A DNA stretch of 64,000 bases. Origin: a virus. Below are positions 7,886-35,560 of the stretch, piece after piece. The notes beneath the pieces are model-generated. The model had not been told where the DNA came from. It did no database searches and was given only the letters and a program-made list of their open reading frames with translations. A program made the translations under genes and the position numbers. The DNA lies in the IMG/VR virus record IMGVR_UViG_3300020048_000026, positions 32,001-96,000 of that record. One strand, written 5' to 3'. Every line of letters starts with the position of its first letter. Within the stretch, counting starts at the first letter, position 1.

Positions 7886-10800
7886 ATGGCAATTATTCGT
7901 ATAAGAGATTTAGAAACAGAGGAAAATTTAATAGGAGAGAATTACATACCTATTGATAGAGACGATTATTATTCAAATGCTAAAAAACTTTCATTATCAA
8001 ACTTCAATAATTATATTACTGGAATTACCTATAGTTTCTCATCAGGATTAACCTCAGGAACAGATGGAACTTCAGGTAGTTCAGGTAGTTCAGGAATCAA
8101 TGGAACCTCAGGTTCGTCTGGTAGTTCAGGTCAAGACGGAACCAATTTTGGAACATCAGGTTCATCAGGCTCATCAGGCATTGGCGTTAATGGAACCTCA
8201 GGTAGTTCAGGTAGTTCAGGTATTGATGGTACAAACTTTGGAACATCAGGCTCATCTGGTAGTTCAGGAATAGGAATATCAGGAACAGATGGATCTTCAG
8301 GATCATCAGGAAGTTCAGGTCAAGACGGAACTAATTTTGGAACATCTGGATCTTCAGGTAGTTCAGGTACTTCTGGTGGTGGAAGTGGAACCGCAGGATC
8401 ATCTGGAACAGATGGAAGTTCAGGGACAGATGGAACCAATGGAACTTCAGGTAGTTCAGGAACTAATGGAACCAATGGAACCTCAGGTAGTTCAGGAACA
8501 GATGGAATCAACGGAACTTCAGGTAGTTCAGGTCAAGATGGAACATCAGGCTCATCAGGAACCAATGGTAGTTCAGGTAGTTCAGGATCGGATGGAACCT
8601 CAGGTAGTTCAGGAACTAATGGAACCAATGGAACCTCAGGTAGTTCAGGAATTTTACCACCATTAGGTACTAGTGGTGAATTGGTTTATACTGATCCATT
8701 GGCAACTTATGGATATAATGTAAATTTAGGATTAATTTTTTCTGGAAACACTTTATCTTTATCAGGTATAGGATTTAAATATGCTAATGGTTCTGAAGGT
8801 GTTGAAAAAATTCTTACAAGTGATGTTTTTGGTAATGCTGAATGGATAAGTGTTGTAACTGGAATAACAGATGTAATTGATAGAACATTTGATTTGAAAA
8901 TTTCAAATCAAGTATTATCTGTAGTACCGTATGCGACTAAAAAATCTTCTGATCCAGGATTTGCATATTTTTATTTAACAGGAAATACGAGTGGTCAAAC
9001 TCCAACATTTTATAATCCTTTGACTTTAGATGGCTATTTAAATTCTACAGGACAAAATATCTATACTATTGAAAATACTTCAGTTTTGGGTCCTGAATTG
9101 AATGTGAATCCTGATGGATGGACCGTAACAGGTGATGCTGTTAGTGTTGGAAGTGGAAAATACACTTTTAATACAAGTGGCGTAGCAGGTTCAATAAGTT
9201 ATAATTTTGGAACATTTTCATTATCTGATGTTTATATTTTTATTTTTTATTTTTCAAATGCTGTTGGTGGCGGTTTTCCTGGAATTACATTTGCTGGTGC
9301 TACTAAAACCTATATGGGTGGTTCTTATTCAGGATCTCAATTTAATCATTATGAAATTAATCCTTTAAATGTATCTGGTGTTTGTACATTAACAGTTGAT
9401 GCTGGTGCATATTCAAATTATTATATTAATCAAATAACAGTTAAAAAAGTATTGGCTCCTTCAAATAAATATATTACTCATTACACAACTGGTACAACTT
9501 CTAATGAATTTAGATCATCATATTCAAATGAAAATATTTCTGTTGGATTGGATTCTGGTAAATATCTTGTACCAACAAACACCAATATACCTACTGGAAC
9601 AGGTAATTTATCATTTGGAAAACAATCAATCTATAAGGCTACTGTGGCTACTGATAACCTAGCATTTGGAAATTATTCACAATGGGATTTGAGAGAGGGT
9701 GAGGATAATATAAGTATTGGAAATTATTCTTTATATTCCAATAAATTAGGTATAAGAAATATTGCAATTGGATCAAGGGCTCTTTTTACAACAACATCTA
9801 ATTATAATATAGCCATAGGGTATAGAGTTATGTCATTAGCCACTTCGGCATCTAGCAATGTTGGTATTGGAGTTGGTGTAATGCAATCTCTAACTACTGG
9901 CACATATAATACAGCAGTAGGGGCAAATAGTTCATTGGCTGTAACAAGCGCAAGTTATAATACTTCTTTGGGGACTGGATCTTTGCAAAATAATAGCACT
10001 GGTTCACATAACACTGGCGTGGGATCTTATTCTTTTACTTCGGTTTCATCTGGGACTTTAAATGTGGGGTTGGGGTATTATGCTGGATATGGAATATCTA
10101 CGGGCAGTTATAACGTACATTTAGGCCCTTACGCTGGCGGTGGATCAACTGATTATTCAAAAGAAGTATCGCAATATGCTTATAATTCGGCTGATAATAA
10201 TAATGTTTTCATTGGAAATTTAGCATCAAAATCAACATATACGGCAGCAGCGACATCTAATAGTGTAGCAATTGGGATAGATGCAAAAATATATCAAGAT
10301 AATCAAGTTACATTGGGTGGTAATAATGTATCATCAACATTTTTAAAAGGATCTGTTGAACTTCGAGATTTCACAATACTTGCTAACGAAACATTGAGTG
10401 ATATAAATCCTATTGATAATTCAAAATGGACAACAACAGGTGATATGTCGGTTTTACCCGGAAGCGGATTAACATATACTTATAATACAGGTTCTGGAAT
10501 ATTTTCCCAAACATTTGGTAATCAATTAAATCCTTTGAAGGGAAACAGGTGGTATAAAGTTATTCTTACTACAGCGGGCACACTGGCAATTCCTGGTCCT
10601 TATTATTCAACTTTTACTATATCAATTACAGGAAACACATTTGCCCCAACAACATTAAATTTTTATCCTTATACAAACACATCTCAATTTTTATATTTAA
10701 AAACTGTTACTAACCCAACTGATATAACATTTAATATAACTTGTGCACTAGGAACAGGTAATGGGATAGTTAGAATTTCAAATATAAGTATCAAAGAATG

Positions 10801-24264: not shown

Positions 24265-24930
24265 ATGGGTACAAGAGGTTCATCAGGGTTTATCTATAAA
24301 GATACACCTTATTTAAATTACAATCATTATGATTCCTATCCAGATGGTTTAGGTAGAGATGTTTTACATTTTATTGTAGATGTAAATAAAGAAAATGGTT
24401 GGGATAAATTCAAAGAAAATTCAAATGATATTATTCCAATAACAGAAAAAAGGATAACAGATCCTGATATAATTGAAAAATATAAGAAATATGCCGATTT
24501 AAGTGTTTCAACCAAAACATATGATGATCCATATTGCTTATTTAGAAAAATACAAGATTCTTGGATGCCTGAAATTTTAAAAGGCGAACTTAAACATTTT
24601 ACTTTTAATGATAATTTCATTAAAGAATCACTATTTTGCGAATATGCTTATGTTATTAATCTAGATACCATGAAATTGGAATTTTATGATGGATATCAAA
24701 AAGAAAGTCAACCTTCTAATAGATTTGGTGAAATACCTAATGAAGATGGTTATTATCCTTGCCGTTTAGTTGCTGTTTTTGATCTTCAAAAAATTCAAAA
24801 TAGTACTGACGTTGGACATATTGTAGAAAAAATGGATTTAATTTGTGATTTAAAAAAAGATGATCCGTCCATTTTACAATATTTCCGAAAACCAAAATTG
24901 GATAAAATAAATGAAAAAGCCTCTTTATAG
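24265..24930 (+). CDS. Conserved-looking phage hypothetical protein (ends in TAG)
   Basis: MGTRG...YNHYDSYPDGLG...CEYAYVINLD; RKPKLDKI tail. Confidence 0.7.
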   Translation: MGTRGSSGFIYKDTPYLNYNHYDSYPDGLGRDVLHFIVDVNKENGWDKFKENSNDIIPITEKRITDPDIIEKYKKYADLSVSTKTYDDPYCLFRKIQDSWMPEILKGELKHFTFNDNFIKESLFCEYAYVINLDTMKLEFYDGYQKESQPSNRFGEIPNEDGYYPCRLVAVFDLQKIQNSTDVGHIVEKMDLICDLKKDDPSILQYFRKPKLDKINEKASL

Positions 24931-24940
24931 AGGCTTTTTT
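24914..24940. terminator. Bidirectional intrinsic terminator
   Basis: aaaaagcctct-ttat-agaggctttttt between convergent CDS and tRNA genes. Confidence 0.8.
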
Positions 24941-24944
24941 CTTG

Positions 24945-25017
24945 CCCTAAGTGTAGGACTTGAACCTACGACCAACTATTTTAGAGATAGCTGCTCTACC
25001 AACTGAGCTAACAAAGG
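24945..25017 (-). tRNA. Amber suppressor tRNA (anticodon CUA) 1
   Basis: Cloverleaf; anticodon arm GCTAT-CTCTAAA-ATAGT; T-arm GTAGG-TTCAAGT-CCTAC; acceptor CCTTTGT/ACTTAGG with two U-U mismatches; G73. Confidence 0.85.
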
Positions 25018-25023
25018 ATTTTG

Positions 25024-25096
25024 AGATCCAGGTGGGGATCGAACCCACGACCAACTATTTTAGAGATAGCTTCTCTACCAACTGAGATACAAGATC
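25024..25096 (-). tRNA. Amber suppressor tRNA (anticodon CUA) 2
   Basis: Cloverleaf; identical anticodon arm; acceptor GATCTTG/CTGGATC with one U-U mismatch; U73. Confidence 0.88.
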
Positions 25097-25102
25097 AAGT
25101 AA

Positions 25103-25130
25103 GTTATTAGAGGATTCGTCCTCTAATAAC
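25103..25130. other. Perfect 12-bp hairpin in the suppressor-tRNA leader
   Basis: gttattagagga-ttcg-tcctctaataac. Confidence 0.75.
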
Positions 25131-25134
25131 AATA

Positions 25135-25142
25135 CAAAAGTA
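25135..25142 (-). promoter_or_regulatory. TAnnTTTG promoter box for suppressor tRNAs
   Basis: TACTTTTG on minus strand. Confidence 0.55.
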
Positions 25143-25166
25143 CTACTTTTCTTCCATAGAAAAAAA

Positions 25167-30032: not shown

Positions 30033-30553
30033 TATTCAAATTTAATTTTTAATCCCATATTCTGCATTGCTAATAATGCTTCTGCATTTCCCTTAGCATC
30101 ATTCACAGGATTATGATCATGAGTTGTTTTTCTTAACTTTTTCCAACTTGACCTTGAATCCATCTTCATACCACAATATAAATCACCTATCCTACGACTT
30201 GACCATCCAAAAGGATTAACTCCTCCATTAAACTCTTGAAAATAAAGATTAATCCAACCTGCATCATATCCATTATTATCCGATATTAAAATAGGCTGAC
30301 CAATTGATACCGATTTAATCCACTCCGCAAATTCTTTCATAACCTTAACTGGTTCATCAAAAGTTTCATGCTCCTCCCTTGAAAATCCACTAATCGCAAG
30401 AGCCTCCGGAACCCAAATACCAGATATCGGTCTTACTTTACCATAAAACGTTTTACTTAAACTAGGCTCCACCACAACCGCTCCAAAACAAACCATTGAG
30501 TGCCTTAAAAAATTCTGTCCATCTGACTCTACATCTACTACTATAAAACTCAT
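30032..30553 (-). CDS. DEDDh 3'-5' exonuclease
   Basis: VVDVESDG, NNGYD, HNPVNDA motifs. Confidence 0.85.
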   Translation of the reverse strand: MSFIVVDVESDGQNFLRHSMVCFGAVVVEPSLSKTFYGKVRPISGIWVPEALAISGFSREEHETFDEPVKVMKEFAEWIKSVSIGQPILISDNNGYDAGWINLYFQEFNGGVNPFGWSSRRIGDLYCGMKMDSRSSWKKLRKTTHDHNPVNDAKGNAEALLAMQNMGLKIKFE

Positions 30554-30577
30554 AATTTTTCTTTTATTTTACAAATA

Positions 30578-30585
30578 CAAATATA
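30578..30585 (-). promoter_or_regulatory. TAnnTTTG promoter box
   Basis: TATATTTG upstream of the exonuclease operon. Confidence 0.55.
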
Positions 30586-30602
30586 TAACAATTTTTAAAT
30601 AA

Positions 30603-30635
30603 AAAAAAGGAATAAAAATAATTTTATTCCTTTTT
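30603..30635 (-). terminator. Intrinsic terminator
   Basis: aaaaaggaataaaa-ataa-ttttattccttttt hairpin after 30655-30837. Confidence 0.7.
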
Positions 30636-30654
30636 AGCTTTTCATTTGGAATTA

Positions 30655-30837
30655 TTACTTTCCTTTAGTTACTTCAACAGATGCTTGTCTATATGGTGTT
30701 ACCAATTTCTTAATTTCACCTAAAGCCTTACGAACATCAGCTTCCGCTGTTTTGTTGCCTTTTTCAACAAATTTTGCGTGTCTTTCTTGTACAATAGCAA
30801 ATTGCTCTTCAATTTTTGCATAGAGTTCTTCTAACAT
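30655..30837 (-). CDS. Histone-H1-like (Hc1-type) small DNA-binding protein
   Basis: EKGNKTAEADVRKALGEIKKLVTPYRQASV resembles Bacteroidota Hc1-like proteins. Confidence 0.65.
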   Translation of the reverse strand: MLEELYAKIEEQFAIVQERHAKFVEKGNKTAEADVRKALGEIKKLVTPYRQASVEVTKGK

Positions 30838-30991
30838 ATTTATTTAATTATTTTTATAATCAATTCAATGATTGATTTTATTGAATACAGATTATATAAC
30901 AATGCTATTATAAAGTTTAATTTTTTTGTTGTTATTTGTTGTTTTTATGATTTAATATTATTAATATATACTAAAAAATGATATTACTATC

Positions 30992-31282
30992 ATGAAAAAT
31001 TATAACGAAGGTAAATTATACGATGAACAAATTAATAGTTTACAAGAAGAACTAGAAGAATTATTAGTGAAAGCTGAAAAAATTCTTGATTATAAATCCG
31101 AAGATATTAACGAAGTAGTTGAAAAATTGCTAATCTTAAATACCGAAGAATCAGATACATTAGCAGCAGATATTATCTCAATAGAAGATGATATGATCGT
31201 TACCGAAGAATATTATTCTGAAATTGAATCCGAAGATCCTTTTACTAACTTGTATGATCAAGATTCAGATTTATCTTTTTGA
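30992..31282 (+). CDS. Acidic hypothetical protein
   Basis: 96 aa, very D/E-rich. Confidence 0.6.
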   Translation: MKNYNEGKLYDEQINSLQEELEELLVKAEKILDYKSEDINEVVEKLLILNTEESDTLAADIISIEDDMIVTEEYYSEIESEDPFTNLYDQDSDLSF

Positions 31283-31505
31283 TTTTCTTTGCTCTTAACC
31301 TCTTTTCAAACTCAACATGATTTGATTCTATAACCTTCAATACCCAATGATAAAATAAATTTTCATGAAATTCCATTAAATGTGATTTGCCTTTATAAAA
31401 AGCACATTGAATTAATATATCATTATTAGATAACTTCTTTCCTAAATCAACTAAAATATCAAGAATATCTTCAGCTGAATACTTTTTTATTTCTGTGAGT
31501 GTCAT
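31245..31505 (-). CDS. Hypothetical protein (start revised; listed upstream part is tRNA-Ser)
   Basis: ATG at 31505 immediately after tRNA CCA; RAKKIKKI tail. Confidence 0.6.
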   Translation of the reverse strand: MTLTEIKKYSAEDILDILVDLGKKLSNNDILIQCAFYKGKSHLMEFHENLFYHWVLKVIESNHVEFEKRLRAKKIKKINLNLDHTS

Positions 31506-31507
31506 TT

Positions 31508-31598
31508 TGGCGGAGAGTGTAGGATTCGAACCTACGGGACCCTTACGAGTCCTACAGTTTTCAAGACTGTCGCGATAGACCAACTCTGCCAACTCTCC
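31508..31598 (-). tRNA. tRNA-Ser(UGA)
   Basis: ACAGT-CTTGAAA-ACTGT, long variable arm, G73, encoded CCA. Confidence 0.95.
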
Positions 31599-31631
31599 AA
31601 TATTTTATATATAAAATTTATTCCTCTATGT

Positions 31632-32261
31632 TTAAATTAATATTAACCTATCTACACCAATCGCAAACCCAATTCCTCCATCATAACTACCACCACCACA
31701 AATTTGTTTCTGCGCACCCAATTTATCACAAGATATTTCAAATCCTTTTCCATCCTTATAGTAATCTAACCCCCTCTTCACATCTGTATTTATATCAAAA
31801 TCTGGTGTTACTAATTCAATTATTTTACTAGATATTTCTATAAGTTCATCTAAATAGTCCTTATTTGGATTCAAAATTTCAACTCCAAATTGTGTAAATT
31901 CCCTATATCTTCCTGCTTGTGGTGATTCACCTCTAAAACATTCTCCAATGTAAAATAATTTTACGTTTTTTTGATATTTTAATTTTTCCTTCGCTATTAA
32001 TTGAACAACAGCCGTATATTCAGGTGCTAAACATATATCACGATTACCAGCATCAGTAAATTTATACATCATATTCCTATTTTCCTCTCCAACCTTGGAT
32101 TGAAAAATTTCAGAATTTTGTATAATTGGTATCATAATTTCTTGATAACCATAAGAATACATAATATCAATCATTTTATTGATTAAATCTCTTTTGTATT
32201 TTGCTGTTTCATTAAAAAGAATCCTAGTTCCTTTATATGTATTTTTAAGTTTTATTTCCAT
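31632..32261 (-). CDS. hisS: Histidyl-tRNA synthetase-like protein, catalytic core only
   Basis: Motif 2 FRGESPQAGRYREFTQFGVE, RGLDYY, GGGSYDG, motif 3 GFAIGVDRL; ends right after motif 3. Confidence 0.85.
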   Translation of the reverse strand: MEIKLKNTYKGTRILFNETAKYKRDLINKMIDIMYSYGYQEIMIPIIQNSEIFQSKVGEENRNMMYKFTDAGNRDICLAPEYTAVVQLIAKEKLKYQKNVKLFYIGECFRGESPQAGRYREFTQFGVEILNPNKDYLDELIEISSKIIELVTPDFDINTDVKRGLDYYKDGKGFEISCDKLGAQKQICGGGSYDGGIGFAIGVDRLILI

Positions 32262-32292
32262 AATTTTTAAATTTTAAATTGAAGAATTATTG

Positions 32293-32366
32293 TAGGTTTG
32301 GTGGGACTCGAACCCACACAGCATTGATTAAGAGTCAATTTCAATATCCAGTTATGATACAAACCC
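32293..32366 (-). tRNA. tRNA-Lys(CUU)
   Basis: ATTGA-CTCTTAA-TCAAT; T-arm GTGGG-TTCGAGT-CCCAC; A73. Confidence 0.85.
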
Positions 32367-32370
32367 AATT

Positions 32371-32456
32371 TGGCACGAAAAGTAGGATTCGAACCCACGA
32401 ACTCTTACGAGATTTGTTTTGGAGACAAACGCCTTTGACCGCTCGGCAATTTTCGT
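32371..32456 (-). tRNA. tRNA-Trp(CCA) with long variable arm
   Basis: TTTGT-CTCCAAA-ACAAA; variable arm CTC-GTAA-GAG; A1-U72, G73, CCA. Confidence 0.85.
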
Positions 32457-32503
32457 ATTTAAAGATGTGCCTGTGTTAATTACATCACACATCTTAATAT
32501 TTT

Positions 32504-32740
32504 TTAGTTAAGTTGAATTAACTTATCATTATCTATTGCTTTTCTTATCCAACGCATAAGTTCAATACTTCTCATTTCTGGTAAAAAATATACATTTGCA
32601 AATTCTACATGATCAGTAGTGTCCATTTCTAATTGATATAATGTACCTTCAACTTGAATTATGTAATATACAACTCCGTTACATACATATGACATTTTAG
32701 CCATTGTTCCTTTTACGATTTCTTTTAAAGTGTGTTTCAT
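32504..32740 (-). CDS. Hypothetical protein within tRNA cluster
   Basis: 78-aa ORF. Confidence 0.65.
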   Translation of the reverse strand: MKHTLKEIVKGTMAKMSYVCNGVVYYIIQVEGTLYQLEMDTTDHVEFANVYFLPEMRSIELMRWIRKAIDNDKLIQLN

Positions 32741-32870
32741 TTTATTTATTATTTTTATTGTTTCTAAATAAGATAGTTTTTTTCAAAATAAACTGGACAT
32801 TTTTCATTTTGAAAAGTTTATGTGAGTAAGAAAAGGATAACTATCACCTATTGATGAAAATTATACTAAG

Positions 32871-32959
32871 TGGCGGAAAAAGAGGGGCTCGAACCCTCGC
32901 ACCGATAACGATCTATACGCTTTCCAAGCGTACCCCTTCACCAACTTGGGTATTTTTCC
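32871..32959 (-). tRNA. tRNA-Ser(GGA)
   Basis: TACGC-TTGGAAA-GCGTA, long variable arm, CCA. Confidence 0.93.
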
Positions 32960-32964
32960 ATTTG

Positions 32965-33037
32965 TGACCCGAAACGGATTTGAACCGCTGACGCAAAGAT
33001 CTTCAATCTTTCGCTCTACCAACTGAGCTACCAGGTC
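32965..33037 (-). tRNA. tRNA-Phe(GAA)
   Basis: AAAGA-TTGAAGA-TCTTT; canonical D and T arms. Confidence 0.93.
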
Positions 33038-33063
33038 AAAATTGTGGAATAAATCCACATTTG

Positions 33064-33137
33064 TGGTACCGACAGGCGTTGACCCTGTATTTTTGGCTTT
33101 TCAGACCAACACTCTTACACACTTGAGTTACGGCACC
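33064..33137 (-). tRNA. tRNA-Phe(GAA), atypical D/T loops
   Basis: TTGGT-CTGAAAA-GCCAA; T-loop GTCAACG; D-loop lacks GG; stems intact. Confidence 0.75.
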
Positions 33138-33143
33138 TTGTTG

Positions 33144-33228
33144 CGGGGAAGATTGGATTCGAACCAAAGAAGTTCTTTGCTGTAAATAATCTTTTCAGAA
33201 TATTCTCTCACCGTGAGAGATTTTCCCC
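33144..33228 (-). ncRNA. tRNA-like RNA A (ACAGCAA motif stem in anticodon-arm position)
   Basis: GGGGAA/TTCCCC acceptor, 7-bp D-like hairpin, AATATTCT-GAAA-AGATTATT-TACAGCAAA, TTGG-TTCGAAT-CCAA T-arm. Confidence 0.6.
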
Positions 33229-33241
33229 ATTTTATTTGTTG

Positions 33242-33316
33242 GGTGCTATGTCGGATTTGAACCGACGACCACTTGAACCACAATCAAGCATTCTAACCAA
33301 CTGAACTAATAGCACC
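33242..33316 (-). tRNA. tRNA-His(GUG), canonical with G-1
   Basis: CTTGA-TTGTGGT-TCAAG; G-1 and C73. Confidence 0.93.
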
Positions 33317-33321
33317 ATTTG

Positions 33322-33409
33322 GGTGTTAGACGGGACTCGAACCCGCAAGGAGTTTAACCTCTCCAGAGTCACAATCTGGCCCGATAACCTATTTACGGAC
33401 TACTAACAC
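33322..33409 (-). tRNA. tRNA-His(GUG) with long variable arm, no encoded G-1
   Basis: CCAGA-TTGTGAC-TCTGG; variable region AGAGGTTAAACTCCTT; C73; base at -1 is T. Confidence 0.82.
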
Positions 33410-33411
33410 AG

Positions 33412-33502
33412 CGGAAGTTGAGGGGCTCGAACCCTCGCGACGTTTTTCAGACGACCTATCAGTTTAGCAAACTGACCCCTTCACCAACTTGGGTAAACTT
33501 CC
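33412..33502 (-). tRNA. tRNA-Ser(GCU)
   Basis: TCAGT-TTGCTAA-ACTGA, long variable arm, G73. Confidence 0.93.
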
Positions 33503-33508
33503 ATTTTG

Positions 33509-33595
33509 CGGAGACAGACGGAGTTGAACCATCACATCAATTCTCATTGATTTCACCGTTTTCGAGGCGGCTAACTACACCAAATAGGTGTCTCC
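33509..33595 (-). tRNA. tRNA-Ser(CGA), atypical D-arm
   Basis: GCCGC-CTCGAAA-ACGGT; variable arm ATCAAT-GAGA-ATTGAT; C at position 8. Confidence 0.8.
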
Positions 33596-33600
33596 AAAAT

Positions 33601-33680
33601 CAGAATACTTTTTTGGATACGAACCAAGTGAACAAATTTCAAGTTTGTTTTTTTACCTTTGATTTTGCTGTAAGTATTCT
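33601..33680 (-). ncRNA. tRNA-like RNA B (ACAGCAA motif stem in acceptor position)
   Basis: AGAATACT-TACAGCAAA...ACAAA-CTTGAAA-TTTGT...TTGG-TTCGTAT-CCAA...AGTATTCTG. Confidence 0.6.
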
Positions 33681-33681
33681 T

Positions 33682-33771
33682 TGGCGGAAGATAAGGGAAT
33701 CGAACCCTTACACCGGCTCTCACCGATATCACTGTTTTCAAGGCAGCTTACCTCACGCAATGGGATCTTCC
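33682..33771 (-). tRNA. tRNA-Ser(UGA), atypical D-arm
   Basis: GCTGC-CTTGAAA-ACAGT; long variable arm; C8; CCA. Confidence 0.82.
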
Positions 33772-33778
33772 AAAGATG

Positions 33779-33860
33779 CACGCCCAAAAGGATTCGAACC
33801 TTTAACCACGCTTACGCATTACCGGGTTGGAACCGGCTGGTCACTCCAATGAGTGGACGC
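33779..33860 (-). tRNA. tRNA-Trp(CCA), long variable arm and atypical D-arm
   Basis: GCCGG-TTCCAAC-CCGGT; variable arm ATGC-GTAA-GCGT; C8; G73. Confidence 0.78.
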
Positions 33861-33876
33861 ATTTATTAATTTTTTG

Positions 33877-33960
33877 TGACCCCTATGGGACTCGAACCCA
33901 TGACTCCCTGATTAAAAGTCAGGTACTCTTCGCTTTCGCTACCAACTGAGTTAAGAGGTC
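33877..33960 (-). tRNA. tRNA-Lys(UUU) with D-loop insertion
   Basis: CCTGA-CTTTTAA-TCAGG; extra GC-GAAA-GC in the D-loop. Confidence 0.88.
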
Positions 33961-33965
33961 ATTAG

Positions 33966-34052
33966 TACGCCCGAAGGGAATCGAACCCTTGTACAACTTT
34001 CGTATCCCAGATTAAAAGTCTGGTGCCTCACGCCTATCTCGGCCACGGACGC
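33966..34052 (-). tRNA. tRNA-Lys(UUU) with long variable arm
   Basis: CCAGA-CTTTTAA-TCTGG; variable region GATACGAAAGTTGTAC; A73. Confidence 0.85.
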
Positions 34053-34064
34053 ATTCTAATTCTC

Positions 34065-34080
34065 CAATATGTCAAATAAC
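34065..34080 (-). promoter_or_regulatory. boxA-like antitermination element
   Basis: GTTATTTGACATATTG just before the first tRNA; resembles rrn boxA (TGCTCTTTAACA). Confidence 0.4.
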
Positions 34081-34139
34081 TTTTTTTACTCTTTTACTCT
34101 TTTACTTTTTTACTTTTTTAGTCCAAAATTCTAATTTTT

Positions 34140-34179
34140 AAAACAAAAAAATCCGAACTTTTTTATGGTTCGGATTTTT
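34140..34179 (-). terminator. Attenuator terminator upstream of tRNA array
   Basis: AAAAATCCGAAC-CATAAAAAA-GTTCGGATTTTT followed by TTGTTTT. Confidence 0.85.
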
Positions 34180-34204
34180 ATATCTGTGTTTAAATGTATT
34201 TTTG

Positions 34205-34294
34205 TTACATCAAATAAGGCATAATAGTCTCCGAACCTTGGCTATGTGACCAAAATTTAAAGGATTTACTACTATGTTTCTTAACTAATGCCAT
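34205..34294 (-). CDS. Leader peptide MALVKKHSSKSFKFWSHSQGSETIMPYLM
   Basis: 29 codons; codons 5-18 are only K/H/S/F/W; contains GGTTCGGA complementary to the terminator 5' arm. Confidence 0.85.
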   Translation of the reverse strand: MALVKKHSSKSFKFWSHSQGSETIMPYLM

Positions 34295-34383
34295 GATTTC
34301 TATTTTATTTGAGTTGTTTATGTTTTTTATTTGTTTTCTATATATAATTAAAATTATATCGTTTTTTTCTATTTTTGTTTATT

Positions 34384-34488
34384 TTATTTTCTTCTTTTTT
34401 GAATTTTTCCCTTAAAACTATACCAGTTAAGCATAAAAGCCATGTATAACAGCTTAAACTTCAAGTATATGTATGCTAATCTTGTCAT
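34384..34488 (-). CDS. Small hydrophobic peptide MTRLAYIYLKFKLLYMAFMLNWYSFKGKIQKRRK
   Basis: 34-codon ORF just downstream of TAATTTTG box at 34507-34514. Confidence 0.45.
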   Translation of the reverse strand: MTRLAYIYLKFKLLYMAFMLNWYSFKGKIQKRRK

Positions 34489-34656
34489 AGTTCCGATTTG
34501 ATTGTACAAAATTACATCTTTTTTCTGAATAAAAAAATTATTTTCAAATTATTTTCAAAAATATCTTTTTTGCTACCTTTAACCTTAGTTAATTAAGCCG
34601 AACGTATAGGTCTTGTGACCGATTTTTAGAGGTTCTGCGACTCAAAAAAGTTATTT

Positions 34657-34854
34657 TTAAAATTCAATTTTACCATTATCTAATAGATCCTCAATCATAT
34701 CATCAATATTATCAAGTAAAAAATTTTTTACTTGATATTTTATGTATTTCTTTTTTGAGGCTTTATCAGCATTATTCCAATCATTTAAATTTGGATTTGC
34801 TTCTATTTCAAATTCAGAATCTATTTTTACTCTTATTTTAAGTTGTTTTTCCAT
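34657..34854 (-). CDS. Hypothetical protein
   Basis: 65-aa ORF with TAATTTTG box at 34871-34878. Confidence 0.65.
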   Translation of the reverse strand: MEKQLKIRVKIDSEFEIEANPNLNDWNNADKASKKKYIKYQVKNFLLDNIDDMIEDLLDNGKIEF

Positions 34855-34901
34855 TTTTATTATTTGATTACAAAATTACATTTTTTTTCTGAATAAAAAA
34901 A

Positions 34902-35330
34902 TTATTCTGATAATTTTTTCAATTTTTTTATTCTTTCTTCTCTCATTTTGAGTAATTCGTATTTTTTAAAATCTTTAATTTCAATTTCGTATATGACTGG
35001 CATTTGGATATTATCTCTTGTAAAGAATGTTGTTTTTATGATAAAGTCTCCTGTAGATAATTTATCAAATATTGGAGGTAGTTCAACGACTTTATTAAAT
35101 GTTCCCCAATGTTGTCTTGTTGACCATTGATTTTTTCTTAATTTAGAGATTATTGGATAGTTATTTTTATTAGGATTTACTTCATATTTAACTGTTACCC
35201 AATCGGCTAAAATTTTATCTTTATAAGAAGCGTTTGTTGGTACTACGGGGCAATCGCAAGAACATATTTTAATATTTCTTGAATAATTTCTTGGTTTCCA
35301 TGAAACGTATTCGTGATTTTCTATTCTCAT
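34902..35330 (-). CDS. Hypothetical protein with RIKKLKKL tail
   Basis: 142-aa ORF. Confidence 0.65.
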   Translation of the reverse strand: MRIENHEYVSWKPRNYSRNIKICSCDCPVVPTNASYKDKILADWVTVKYEVNPNKNNYPIISKLRKNQWSTRQHWGTFNKVVELPPIFDKLSTGDFIIKTTFFTRDNIQMPVIYEIEIKDFKKYELLKMREERIKKLKKLSE

Positions 35331-35332
35331 TT

Positions 35333-35560
35333 TTATTCTTCTATTAAATCAAAAACAATTGCTGTGTATGAGAAATAATCTTCCAATTCGTTTATTACAA
35401 ATTTGTCGGAGATTTTGGTATTTTCATCAAAATCAGATATCCATTTTACAATAAGGGAGTGTTCTATATAGATAGCATCTTTAGAATGAAGAGTTTCATC
35501 CCAAATGAAATAAGGTTTATAACCTTTGCTAATTGCGAATTCTATTAATTTTGTTTTCAT
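35333..35560 (-). CDS. Hypothetical protein
   Basis: 75-aa ORF; TATCTTTG box at 35565-35572, so probably near-leaderless. Confidence 0.6.
   Translation of the reverse strand: MKTKLIEFAISKGYKPYFIWDETLHSKDAIYIEHSLIVKWISDFDENTKISDKFVINELEDYFSYTAIVFDLIEE

Follow-up and report, generated by a model that had tools for sequence, protein, structure and literature searches.

What decides when a giant phage makes its own transfer RNAs (tRNAs)? The question is raised by a minus-strand array of tRNA genes in a stretch of viral DNA of 64,000 nucleotides (nt), called here the window (bases 32001-96000 of a 154,853-base IMG/VR virus record), and by a short open reading frame (ORF) upstream of the array that contains a run of codons for the array's own amino acids. 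It is very likely, in our judgement, that this leader belongs to a ribosome-mediated (leader-peptide) transcription attenuator gating the array, and the array tRNAs are probably made only when ribosomes read the leader codons slowly.

The leader ORF, 29 codons followed by TAA, opens with an ATG in an A-rich context (AGAAATCATG) that is kept in homologues. All 14 of the consecutive codons from 5 to 18 are cognate to amino acids of the array downstream, namely Lys, His, Ser, Phe and Trp. This is the sole run of at least 10 such codons in the six frames of the window, the next longest being nine; by a naive estimate a run of 14 is expected ~1e-3 times per window, and that length was reached in 0 of 100 shuffles. 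The array comprises 14 solid tRNA genes (Lys x3, His x2, Ser x5, Phe x2, Trp x2) together with one weak Phe gene, and each of its nine anticodons (UUU, CUU, GUG, GCU, GGA, UGA, CGA, GAA, CCA) has a cognate codon in the leader. The correspondence includes rare codons: TCC, AGC and TCG account for 3.2%, 3.5% and 2.7% of the Ser codons in the long ORFs of the phage, and all three are present in the leader, where they are read by the array tRNAs Ser(GGA), Ser(GCU) and Ser(CGA), respectively (P ~0.003). TCC and AGC fall inside the regulatory run, whereas TCG falls outside it and within the antiterminator segment described below, and may therefore serve structure. An earlier interpretation of this DNA, made from its letters alone (the sequence-only reading), had reported the minus-strand ORF at 34294-34205, the restriction of codons 5-18 to five amino acids, the 14 tRNAs and the nine codon-anticodon matches. 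The ORF and the run read exactly as it stated, the 14 genes were recovered by Rfam, ARAGORN and hand reading with a weak fifteenth, Phe(GAA), beside them, and all nine matches are present.

RNA folding adds the remaining parts of the anatomy. Between the leader ORF and the first tRNA stands a terminator (34179-34140) with a stem of 12 base pairs (bp) followed by seven U. In the minimum-free-energy fold of 34300-34130, a long hairpin over the ORF (the protector) is followed by this terminator, which ends near 34140 (z = -5.6). When the leader is folded alone, segment 2 is paired with segment 1, and the best duplex that the leader can form with the terminator 5' arm joins 34237-34230 to 34174-34167 at -9.8 kcal/mol. 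Folding and duplex search thereby recovered the protector, the antiterminator and the terminator with its U-tract, all of which the sequence-only reading had drawn.

From these pairings we infer how termination, read-through, their coupling to translation and the direction of the response would work. Transcription would start upstream of the 29-codon leader ORF. Segment 1, lying in the 14-codon run, would pair with segment 2 (codons ~18-25), segment 2 could alternatively pair with segment 3, and segments 3 and 4 would together form a strong intrinsic terminator. When cognate charged tRNAs are plentiful, the ribosome would cover segment 2 while the polymerase makes segments 3 and 4, and transcription would stop near 34140; when the leader is untranslated, segments 1 and 2 would pair, the terminator would form and the stop would fall at the same place. 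Slow decoding of any codon of the run would hold the ribosome on segment 1, letting segment 2 capture segment 3, so that no terminator forms and the polymerase would read through into the tRNA genes, probably as far as the ORF of 78 amino acids (aa), the mini-HisRS-like (histidyl-tRNA synthetase-like) gene and the last tRNA-Ser. Because read-through would yield the very tRNAs whose shortage stalled the ribosome, the unit would act as negative feedback, matching tRNA supply to the demand of decoding.

Comparison with other giant phages bears directly on this proposal. The CheckV completeness of the record is 22%, and the phage is therefore estimated at ~700 kilobases (kb); its guanine-plus-cytosine content is ~26%, and the ORFs listed at ~25.2-38.9 kb of the window are nearly all on the minus strand. 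Its closest GenBank records belong to giant uncultured phages: LR745206 (635 kb), LR756502 (642 kb) and LR756501 (735 kb), labelled L001, L002 and L003. The first two, which come respectively from the subsurface of Japan and from a French freshwater lake, are among the largest megaphages (PMC9723777). Homologous loci were reached through the HisRS-like anchor gene and through fetched tRNA regions of five related genomes. A scan of IMG/VR with the leader-peptide alignment gave 463 pattern matches, and tblastn confirmed 0 of them because the peptide is too short.

Six further giant-phage loci have a leader of the Lys/His/Ser/Phe/Trp kind in front of a similar array (Table 1), with His, Phe, Lys, Trp and, mostly, Ser tRNAs behind it. 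These homologous leaders have an ATG in an A-rich context, 28-35 codons and a strong terminator after them, and across the family the composition is kept while the order of residues varies. The window and its nearest relative, L047, are separated by synonymous differences (AAA/AAG, TTT/TTC) and by two Ser codons (6 nt) inserted in frame, as would be expected from selection on reading frame and codon content and not from a purely structural RNA. In L001, L002, L005 and L006 the leader ATG is preceded, at 55-65 nt, by a TAnnTTTG box of the Bacteroidota type, and the putative sigma-70-like site of the window stands at the same distance.

In the leader-alone folds of all seven family members, the segment at codons ~18-26 is paired with the regulatory codons, and its best alternative partner is the terminator 5' arm. 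Segment 2, the terminator 5' arm and the terminator 3' arm show three-way covariation in these seven, where covariation was taken from per-sequence duplexes and a permutation test. The leader stop codon is placed 15-33 nt before the terminator 5' arm in seven of seven. The gap from the terminator to the first tRNA is 12-23 nt in L001, L003, L005 and L047; the L002 terminator ends ~10 nt before an unannotated His-like tRNA, and that of L006 is followed directly by a HisRS-like ORF and then by the tRNAs. The corresponding gap is 6-22 nt in other units, of the kind considered next. Since 6-23 nt leaves no room for a promoter, the arrays of the relatives are reachable only by read-through, and a separate promoter between terminator and array is ruled out in them for lack of space.

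Distinct leaders before distinct tRNA blocks were found in at least nine phage genomes or contigs, with an ATG ORF in all units (Table 1). The unit finder script, applied to the loci around the HisRS-like anchor gene and to the remaining tRNA regions of the five related genomes, looked for an intrinsic terminator no more than 900 nt upstream of a tRNA and then listed the ORFs just before that terminator. The codon-match test was run on 21 terminator-to-tRNA units with no ORF chosen by eye: the best stop-free 14-codon stretch, in any frame of the 150 nt before each terminator, was scored against the amino-acid set of every unit's array. The scores of leaders against their own arrays summed to 95.6, compared with 34.3 +/- 6.5 after permutation (maximum 64.2), and none of 20,000 permutations reached the observed sum; 14 of the 21 leaders ranked their own array first. 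Duplex energies between each leader and its own terminator 5' arm, again over 21 units, summed to -230 kcal/mol versus -146 +/- 10 kcal/mol in permutations (0/20,000), with the own arm ranked first by 11 of the 21. The misfits in the codon test are L023, L045 at 2756 and L004 with a Cys tRNA, where the first tRNA is 300-700 nt away. We take these three units to be ordinary gene-end terminators, and the misfit L004 leader, which has three His codons before a HisRS-like gene, may be a His-specific unit.

The match also reaches isoacceptors. Upstream of Arg(CCG), Arg(GCG), Arg(UCG) and Arg(ACG), the L014 leader has one each of CGA, CGG, CGT and CGC, and every one of the six Leu codons occurs in the Leu leader that precedes Leu(UAG, GAG, CAA, UAA). 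For Arg, the Ser/Arg leaders contain CGN but no AGA where the tRNAs behind them are Arg(ACG/UCG/GCG), and AGA is the codon in the leader before Arg(UCU). The sequence-only reading had named agreement between leader codons and array anticodons in related loci, beforehand, as a point on which it could fail. There the match holds, both in the permutation test (0/20,000) and in the isoacceptors, and the trp/his-type attenuator logic that it had claimed is supported by the homologous leaders, the permutation tests, the covariation and the cut-transcript model described below. The anatomy, the codon-to-tRNA match and the covariation can be taken as established at the level of sequence and comparison. 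Beyond the window, we consider it likely that the whole tRNA repertoire is modular, with each block standing behind a test ORF that samples its codons down to single isoacceptors and being transcribed only on slow decoding.

Candidate further leaders were seen at L042 (minus strand, ~2800-2835), L011:15632-15688, L015:15681-15752 and L026:7935-8093. These four comprise Glu-containing leaders ahead of blocks of Glu tRNAs and a run of Gln codons ahead of a Gln tRNA, and their hairpins fall below the strict terminator filter.

Table 1. Coordinates of the leader, its RNA segments and the tRNA array unit in the window, and of leaders in other loci (window positions unless a locus label is given).
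Feature	Position	Strand	Basis or content
Promoter-like site (putative), ~60 nt upstream of leader start codon	34353-34381	-	sigma-70-like match, 10/12 positions
Leader ORF, 29 codons + TAA	34294-34205	-	sequence reading; ATG start
Regulatory codon run, codons 5-18, Lys/His/Ser/Phe/Trp only	34282-34241	-	run KKHSSKSFKFWSHS
Segment 1, protector 5' strand, inside regulatory codons	34249-34276	-	minimum-free-energy folds
Segment 2, protector 3' strand; core 34237-34230 (GGTTCGGA) is the antiterminator strand	34220-34242	-	duplex and leader-alone fold
Segment 3, terminator 5' arm	34167-34179	-	fold
Segment 4, terminator 3' arm and U-tract	34140-34158	-	fold
Spacer, 87 nt, terminator to first tRNA	34053-34139	-	4.6 copies of an 8-nt tandem repeat at 34084-34120
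tRNA-Lys(UUU), long variable arm	33965-34052	-	ARAGORN, Rfam; arm conserved with compensatory changes
tRNA-Lys(UUU), hairpin inserted in D-loop	33876-33960	-	partial Rfam match and hand reading
tRNA-Trp(CCA), atypical D arm, long variable arm	33778-33860	-	ARAGORN default
tRNA-Ser(UGA), atypical	33682-33771	-	ARAGORN relaxed; weak Rfam tRNA-Sec-like match
tRNA-Ser(CGA), atypical	33508-33595	-	ARAGORN relaxed; weak Rfam tRNA-Sec-like match
tRNA-Ser(GCU)	33411-33502	-	ARAGORN, Rfam
tRNA-His(GUG), long variable arm	33320-33409	-	Rfam 40.8 bits; ARAGORN
tRNA-His(GUG), canonical	33241-33315	-	ARAGORN, Rfam
Weak Phe(GAA)-like tRNA, 15th gene, low confidence	33143-33228	-	ARAGORN relaxed only; no Rfam match
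tRNA-Phe(GAA)	33063-33137	-	Rfam 53 bits
tRNA-Phe(GAA), canonical	32964-33037	-	ARAGORN, Rfam
tRNA-Ser(GGA)	32871-32959	-	ARAGORN, Rfam
78-aa ORF within array, no known family	32504-32740	-	family search
tRNA-Trp(CCA), long variable arm	32371-32456	-	ARAGORN, Rfam
tRNA-Lys(CUU)	32292-32366	-	ARAGORN, Rfam
Truncated HisRS-like class II core, 209 aa	31632-32261	-	Pfam PF13393, profile positions 5-130 of 308
tRNA-Ser(UGA)	31508-31598	-	ARAGORN, Rfam
Covarying segments, window			segment 2 GGUUCGGA; terminator 5' arm UCCGAACC; 3' arm follows
Homologous leader	L047:3422-3529		segment 2 AGUUUGGA; terminator 5' arm UCCAAACU; 3' arm follows
Homologous leader	L002:110-196		LR756502; segment 2 GAUUCGA; terminator 5' arm UCGAAUU; 3' arm follows
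Homologous leader	L005:7806-7901		segment 2 GGAUUCGG; terminator 5' arm CCGAAUC; 3' arm follows
Homologous leader	L003:5627-5722		LR756501; segment 2 UUCGGGGUU; terminator 5' arm AACCCCGAA; 3' arm follows
Homologous leader	L006:9825-9920		segment 2 AGUUCGGG; terminator 5' arm CCUGAACU; 3' arm follows
Homologous leader	L001:2968-3063		LR745206
Ser/Arg leaders	L001:4218-4292, L002:2600-2674, L006:16167-16232		block Arg + Ser
Tyr/Glu leader	L029:5030-5116		block Glu + Tyr
Ile/Gly/Ala leader	L029:6082-6165		block Ile, Gly, Met, Ala
Thr/Met/Asn/Leu/Val/Ile/Arg leader	L030:3701-3817		block of 19 tRNAs of those kinds
Pro/Gln/Asp leader	L031:2704-2799		block Pro + Asp
Gln-run leader	L031:3639-3689		block of three Gln
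Leu-rich leader	L037	-	block of five Leu
Thr/Pro/Ala/Val/Arg/Gly leader	L039	-	block of those tRNAs
Leu/Arg/Lys/Trp leader	L045	-	block of those tRNAs
Ser/Tyr/His/Cys leader	L021:9821-9883		HisRS-like gene, then His, Tyr, Ser, Cys
Asn/Ile/Tyr/Cys/Glu leader	L028:17299-17430		block Glu, Asn, Cys, Ile, Tyr

Can the leader RNA switch in the way that the attenuator would require? Folding results for and against it are gathered here. At equilibrium, the terminator of the full-length leader always wins (P ~0.93), whichever ribosome mask is applied, and the switch must therefore be kinetic; the terminator of the Escherichia coli trp attenuator likewise wins at equilibrium. In a model in which the transcript is cut before the terminator 3' arm, with the 5' arm and loop already out and ribosome masks applied, the probability that the 5' arm of the window is paired upstream is 0.25 when no ribosome is present and 0.87 for a stall at any of codons 4-16. 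With the ribosome at codons 17-26, where it covers segment 2, the probability of upstream pairing is 0.15-0.48. L001, L002 and L005 show the same behaviour in this model, the boundary falling where their cognate codon runs end. Folding with codons masked had been suggested as a check by the sequence-only reading, and of what it predicted the switch appears for stalls at codons 4-16 of the cut transcript but not at equilibrium. L003 and L006 depart from the pattern, their 5' arms already being paired when no ribosome is present. The model further predicts that segment 2 is freed by a ribosome held at the stop codon or at codons 1-4, which are non-cognate; specificity and basal state hence hinge on kinetics, and the basal state would need quick ribosome release and refolding of the protector.

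The remaining objections concern the window itself. Unlike its relatives, it has 87 nt and a tandem repeat between the terminator and the first tRNA, a distance that makes an extra promoter in the spacer possible; a promoter scan of the window reported no promoter-like site there. The part of the array from the 78-aa ORF on may also be independently expressed, given that promoter-like sites precede this ORF. The repeat unit of the spacer is GAGTAAAA on the minus strand, and it is not present in the relatives, whose terminators abut the first tRNA.

The same anatomy could serve counter-defence, with the leader sensing the loss of host tRNAs to anticodon nucleases or toxins and releasing nuclease-resistant phage replacements, a purpose that we regard as unlikely. 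Lys tRNA is a classical nuclease target, and the unusual extra arms on several array tRNAs could alter recognition. Phage tRNAs are also reported to rescue infection from tRNA-cleaving defences (PMC10264068; PMC11464382). However, the leaders of the relatives guard blocks that jointly cover nearly all amino acids and not a subset of nuclease targets, no defence or anti-defence gene was identified among the genes of the array unit, and a sensor based on stalling would be blind to the difference between cleavage and simple under-supply. With nearly every amino acid guarded in the relatives, general control by supply and demand is more economical than a nuclease trigger.

Other readings differ in the mechanism. 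The response could have the opposite sense, efficient translation of the leader favouring read-through in a feed-forward manner, or the leader could take another route and control precursor processing or stability; both would accommodate the predicted freeing of segment 2 by a ribosome at the stop codon in the cut-transcript model and the predicted ground state without translation, in which protector and terminator form. A ribosome close behind RNA polymerase can moreover suppress a nearby terminator, according to one report (PMC4824070). We nonetheless find this very unlikely, as in six of the seven family members the stop codon lies at or beyond the distance from which a terminating ribosome would reach the 5' arm, the specific and covarying complementarity between segment 2 and that arm is a requirement of a stall-driven antiterminator, and the cognate codons sit exactly where stalling frees segment 2. 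It is scarcely credible that the leader is a separate small gene or small RNA ending at a constitutive, leaky terminator, with a codon match that has no regulatory role. The leader region does form a very stable hairpin (z = -5.6) and is called tRNA-like by ARAGORN at its relaxed threshold, but Rfam gives no tRNA match on it at E <= 1, and such a gene would explain neither why dissimilar leaders follow their own arrays in amino acids and isoacceptors nor why each leader has a segment complementary to its own terminator arm.

The array that the proposed attenuator would gate contains several unusual tRNAs. Eleven of its tRNA genes score above threshold in Rfam; ARAGORN at default settings adds Trp(CCA) at 33778-33860. 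Ser(UGA) at 33682-33771 and Ser(CGA) at 33508-33595 come in when its threshold is relaxed, and both also have weak tRNA-Sec-like matches in Rfam. The Lys(UUU) gene at 33876-33960, of which Rfam covers only model positions 8-63, was read by hand. Its acceptor stem, anticodon stem and T arm are normal, its anticodon loop is CUUUUAA, and its D-loop has an insert consisting of a ~10-nt hairpin with a GAAA loop; the label Arg(CCU) given to it by ARAGORN is a misfold. The leader itself was also considered as a degenerate tRNA and rejected, with no RF00005 match at E <= 1 and a call at 34215-34294, with poor stems, from ARAGORN at its relaxed 80% threshold only.

Long variable arms are normally confined, in bacteria, to the tRNAs for Leu, Ser, Tyr and Sec. 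Here Lys, Trp and His tRNAs, and perhaps a Phe tRNA, were also seen in a second form whose variable arm is long, class-II-like and often GNRA-closed, both in the window (33965-34052, 33778-33860, 33320-33409 and 32371-32456, minus strand) and in relatives (L001:3881-4146, L002:841-1110, L005:9262-9448 and L006:12649-12733). Among nine long Lys tRNAs from five phages, three variable-arm pairs are each kept through two-sided changes in 4-5 sequences. Since pairing is kept through changes on both sides, the variable arm is a real, selected feature.

The unit also holds the gene that the sequence-only reading had called HisRS. A HisRS-like gene is present, but it encodes only a truncated core of 209 aa with putative activity. 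The ORF matches the profile of the HisRS catalytic domain in its N-terminal part only and aligns to residues 21-163 and 259-304 of a 438-aa HisRS, and it is therefore without the insertion domain and the anticodon-binding domain. Many giant phages share a HisRS-like protein of ~200 aa that consists of the catalytic core only, seen at 25 IMG/VR loci with 42-73% identity, and the HisRS motif GGRYDG is aligned with GGSYDG in this mini protein. The gene regularly adjoins tRNA-His behind a leader with His codons (L004, L006, L014 and L021, at ~10001-10620). In L004 the HisRS-like gene is immediately preceded, at 9859-9915, by a short leader with three consecutive His codons and a terminator with a strong antiterminator partner (-13.7 kcal/mol), which may together be a His-only attenuator of this synthetase-like gene. 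The occurrence of His-codon leaders directly ahead of the HisRS-like gene in L006, L021 and L014, as well as the three His codons in a row in L004, would fit co-regulation with tRNA-His.

Elsewhere in the window, at 24944-25157 on the minus strand, two tRNA(CUA) amber-suppressor genes lie behind the mini-ORF ATG GAA GAA AAG TAG (25157-25143). A perfect 11-bp hairpin without a U-tract is found ahead of the pair and a terminator after it, at ~24910-24940. The mini-ORF contains TAG, the codon read by tRNA(CUA), and in this recalls the attenuator theme, with no canonical terminator upstream. The 73 window ORFs of at least 100 aa end in TAG (4), TAA (51) or TGA (18); reading TAG as sense gives no clear lengthening of ORFs in the window, and amber recoding is not evident there.

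How does the proposed unit compare with known systems? The enterobacterial multivalent attenuators include ilvGMEDA (Ile/Leu/Val) and thr (Thr/Ile), beside trpL, hisL, pheL and leuL. Like these, the phage unit has a short leader rich in regulatory codons, 1:2, 2:3 and 3:4 pairings and a terminator before the first gene, and, as proposed here, it would take a stalled ribosome as its signal and sense more than one amino acid. Whereas the enterobacterial attenuators regulate biosynthetic enzymes, the phage unit would regulate tRNA genes, so that its output would directly relieve the stall. Its leader samples five amino acids and nine anticodons, down to the codons of rare isoacceptors, and its ORF runs 7-12 codons past segment 2. 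It is also a viral element, and several units partition the tRNA repertoire of one genome. The pheM leader attenuator, which controls pheST (phenylalanyl-tRNA synthetase) in E. coli, is similar in acting on a component of the translation apparatus, and the phage unit likewise holds a synthetase-like gene, the mini-HisRS; however, pheM responds to a single amino acid, and the operon under its control encodes proteins and no tRNAs.

T-box riboswitches, found on synthetase and amino-acid genes of Firmicutes, resemble the proposed phage attenuator in sensing tRNA supply or charging through a choice between terminator and antiterminator. They differ in binding the uncharged tRNA directly, by a specifier codon and the conserved T-box sequence and with no translation, whereas the phage leader has a conserved translated ORF and no match to the T-box family. 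Rfam gave no T-box match at E <= 1 in 30500-35500 and none at gathering score in the whole window, and its Thr_leader family (RF00506) reached 26.8 bits (E = 0.062), below the gathering score of 55 bits and only over the terminator hairpin at 34142-34197; a T-box or a known Rfam leader family is thereby ruled out as the identity of the element. Phage tRNA arrays have been discussed as codon compensation or counter-defence, that is, as large sets that supplement or replace host tRNAs as the window array could; by its titles and abstracts, this work addresses why phages carry tRNAs, not how their transcription is controlled (PMC10264068; PMC11464382).

Full-text literature searches found no publication in which tRNA genes, whether of phages or of other origin, are under the control of a leader peptide or attenuator, in agreement with the sequence-only reading, which had known of no multi-amino-acid attenuator driving a phage tRNA array. 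To our knowledge, leader-peptide attenuation is known for amino-acid biosynthesis operons and a few synthetase genes, not for tRNA genes. If the proposal is true, this would be the first case of ribosome-mediated attenuation of tRNA genes and the first feedback loop by which decoding speed sets tRNA supply, for what is sensed, the speed of decoding at given codons, and what is produced, the tRNAs reading those codons, would close a direct loop. Leaders of this kind could be used to assign a function or an anticodon to odd phage tRNAs from sequence only, to place operon boundaries in uncultured giant phages and as compact synthetic sensors of tRNA availability. Such control would explain how each tRNA is dosed in phages that carry tRNA genes by the dozen and differ from their host in codon usage. 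It bears on the reasons why phages carry tRNAs at all, whether for codon compensation, for the replacement of cleaved host tRNAs or for recoding, and the leaders would reveal the codons that the phage itself treats as limiting.

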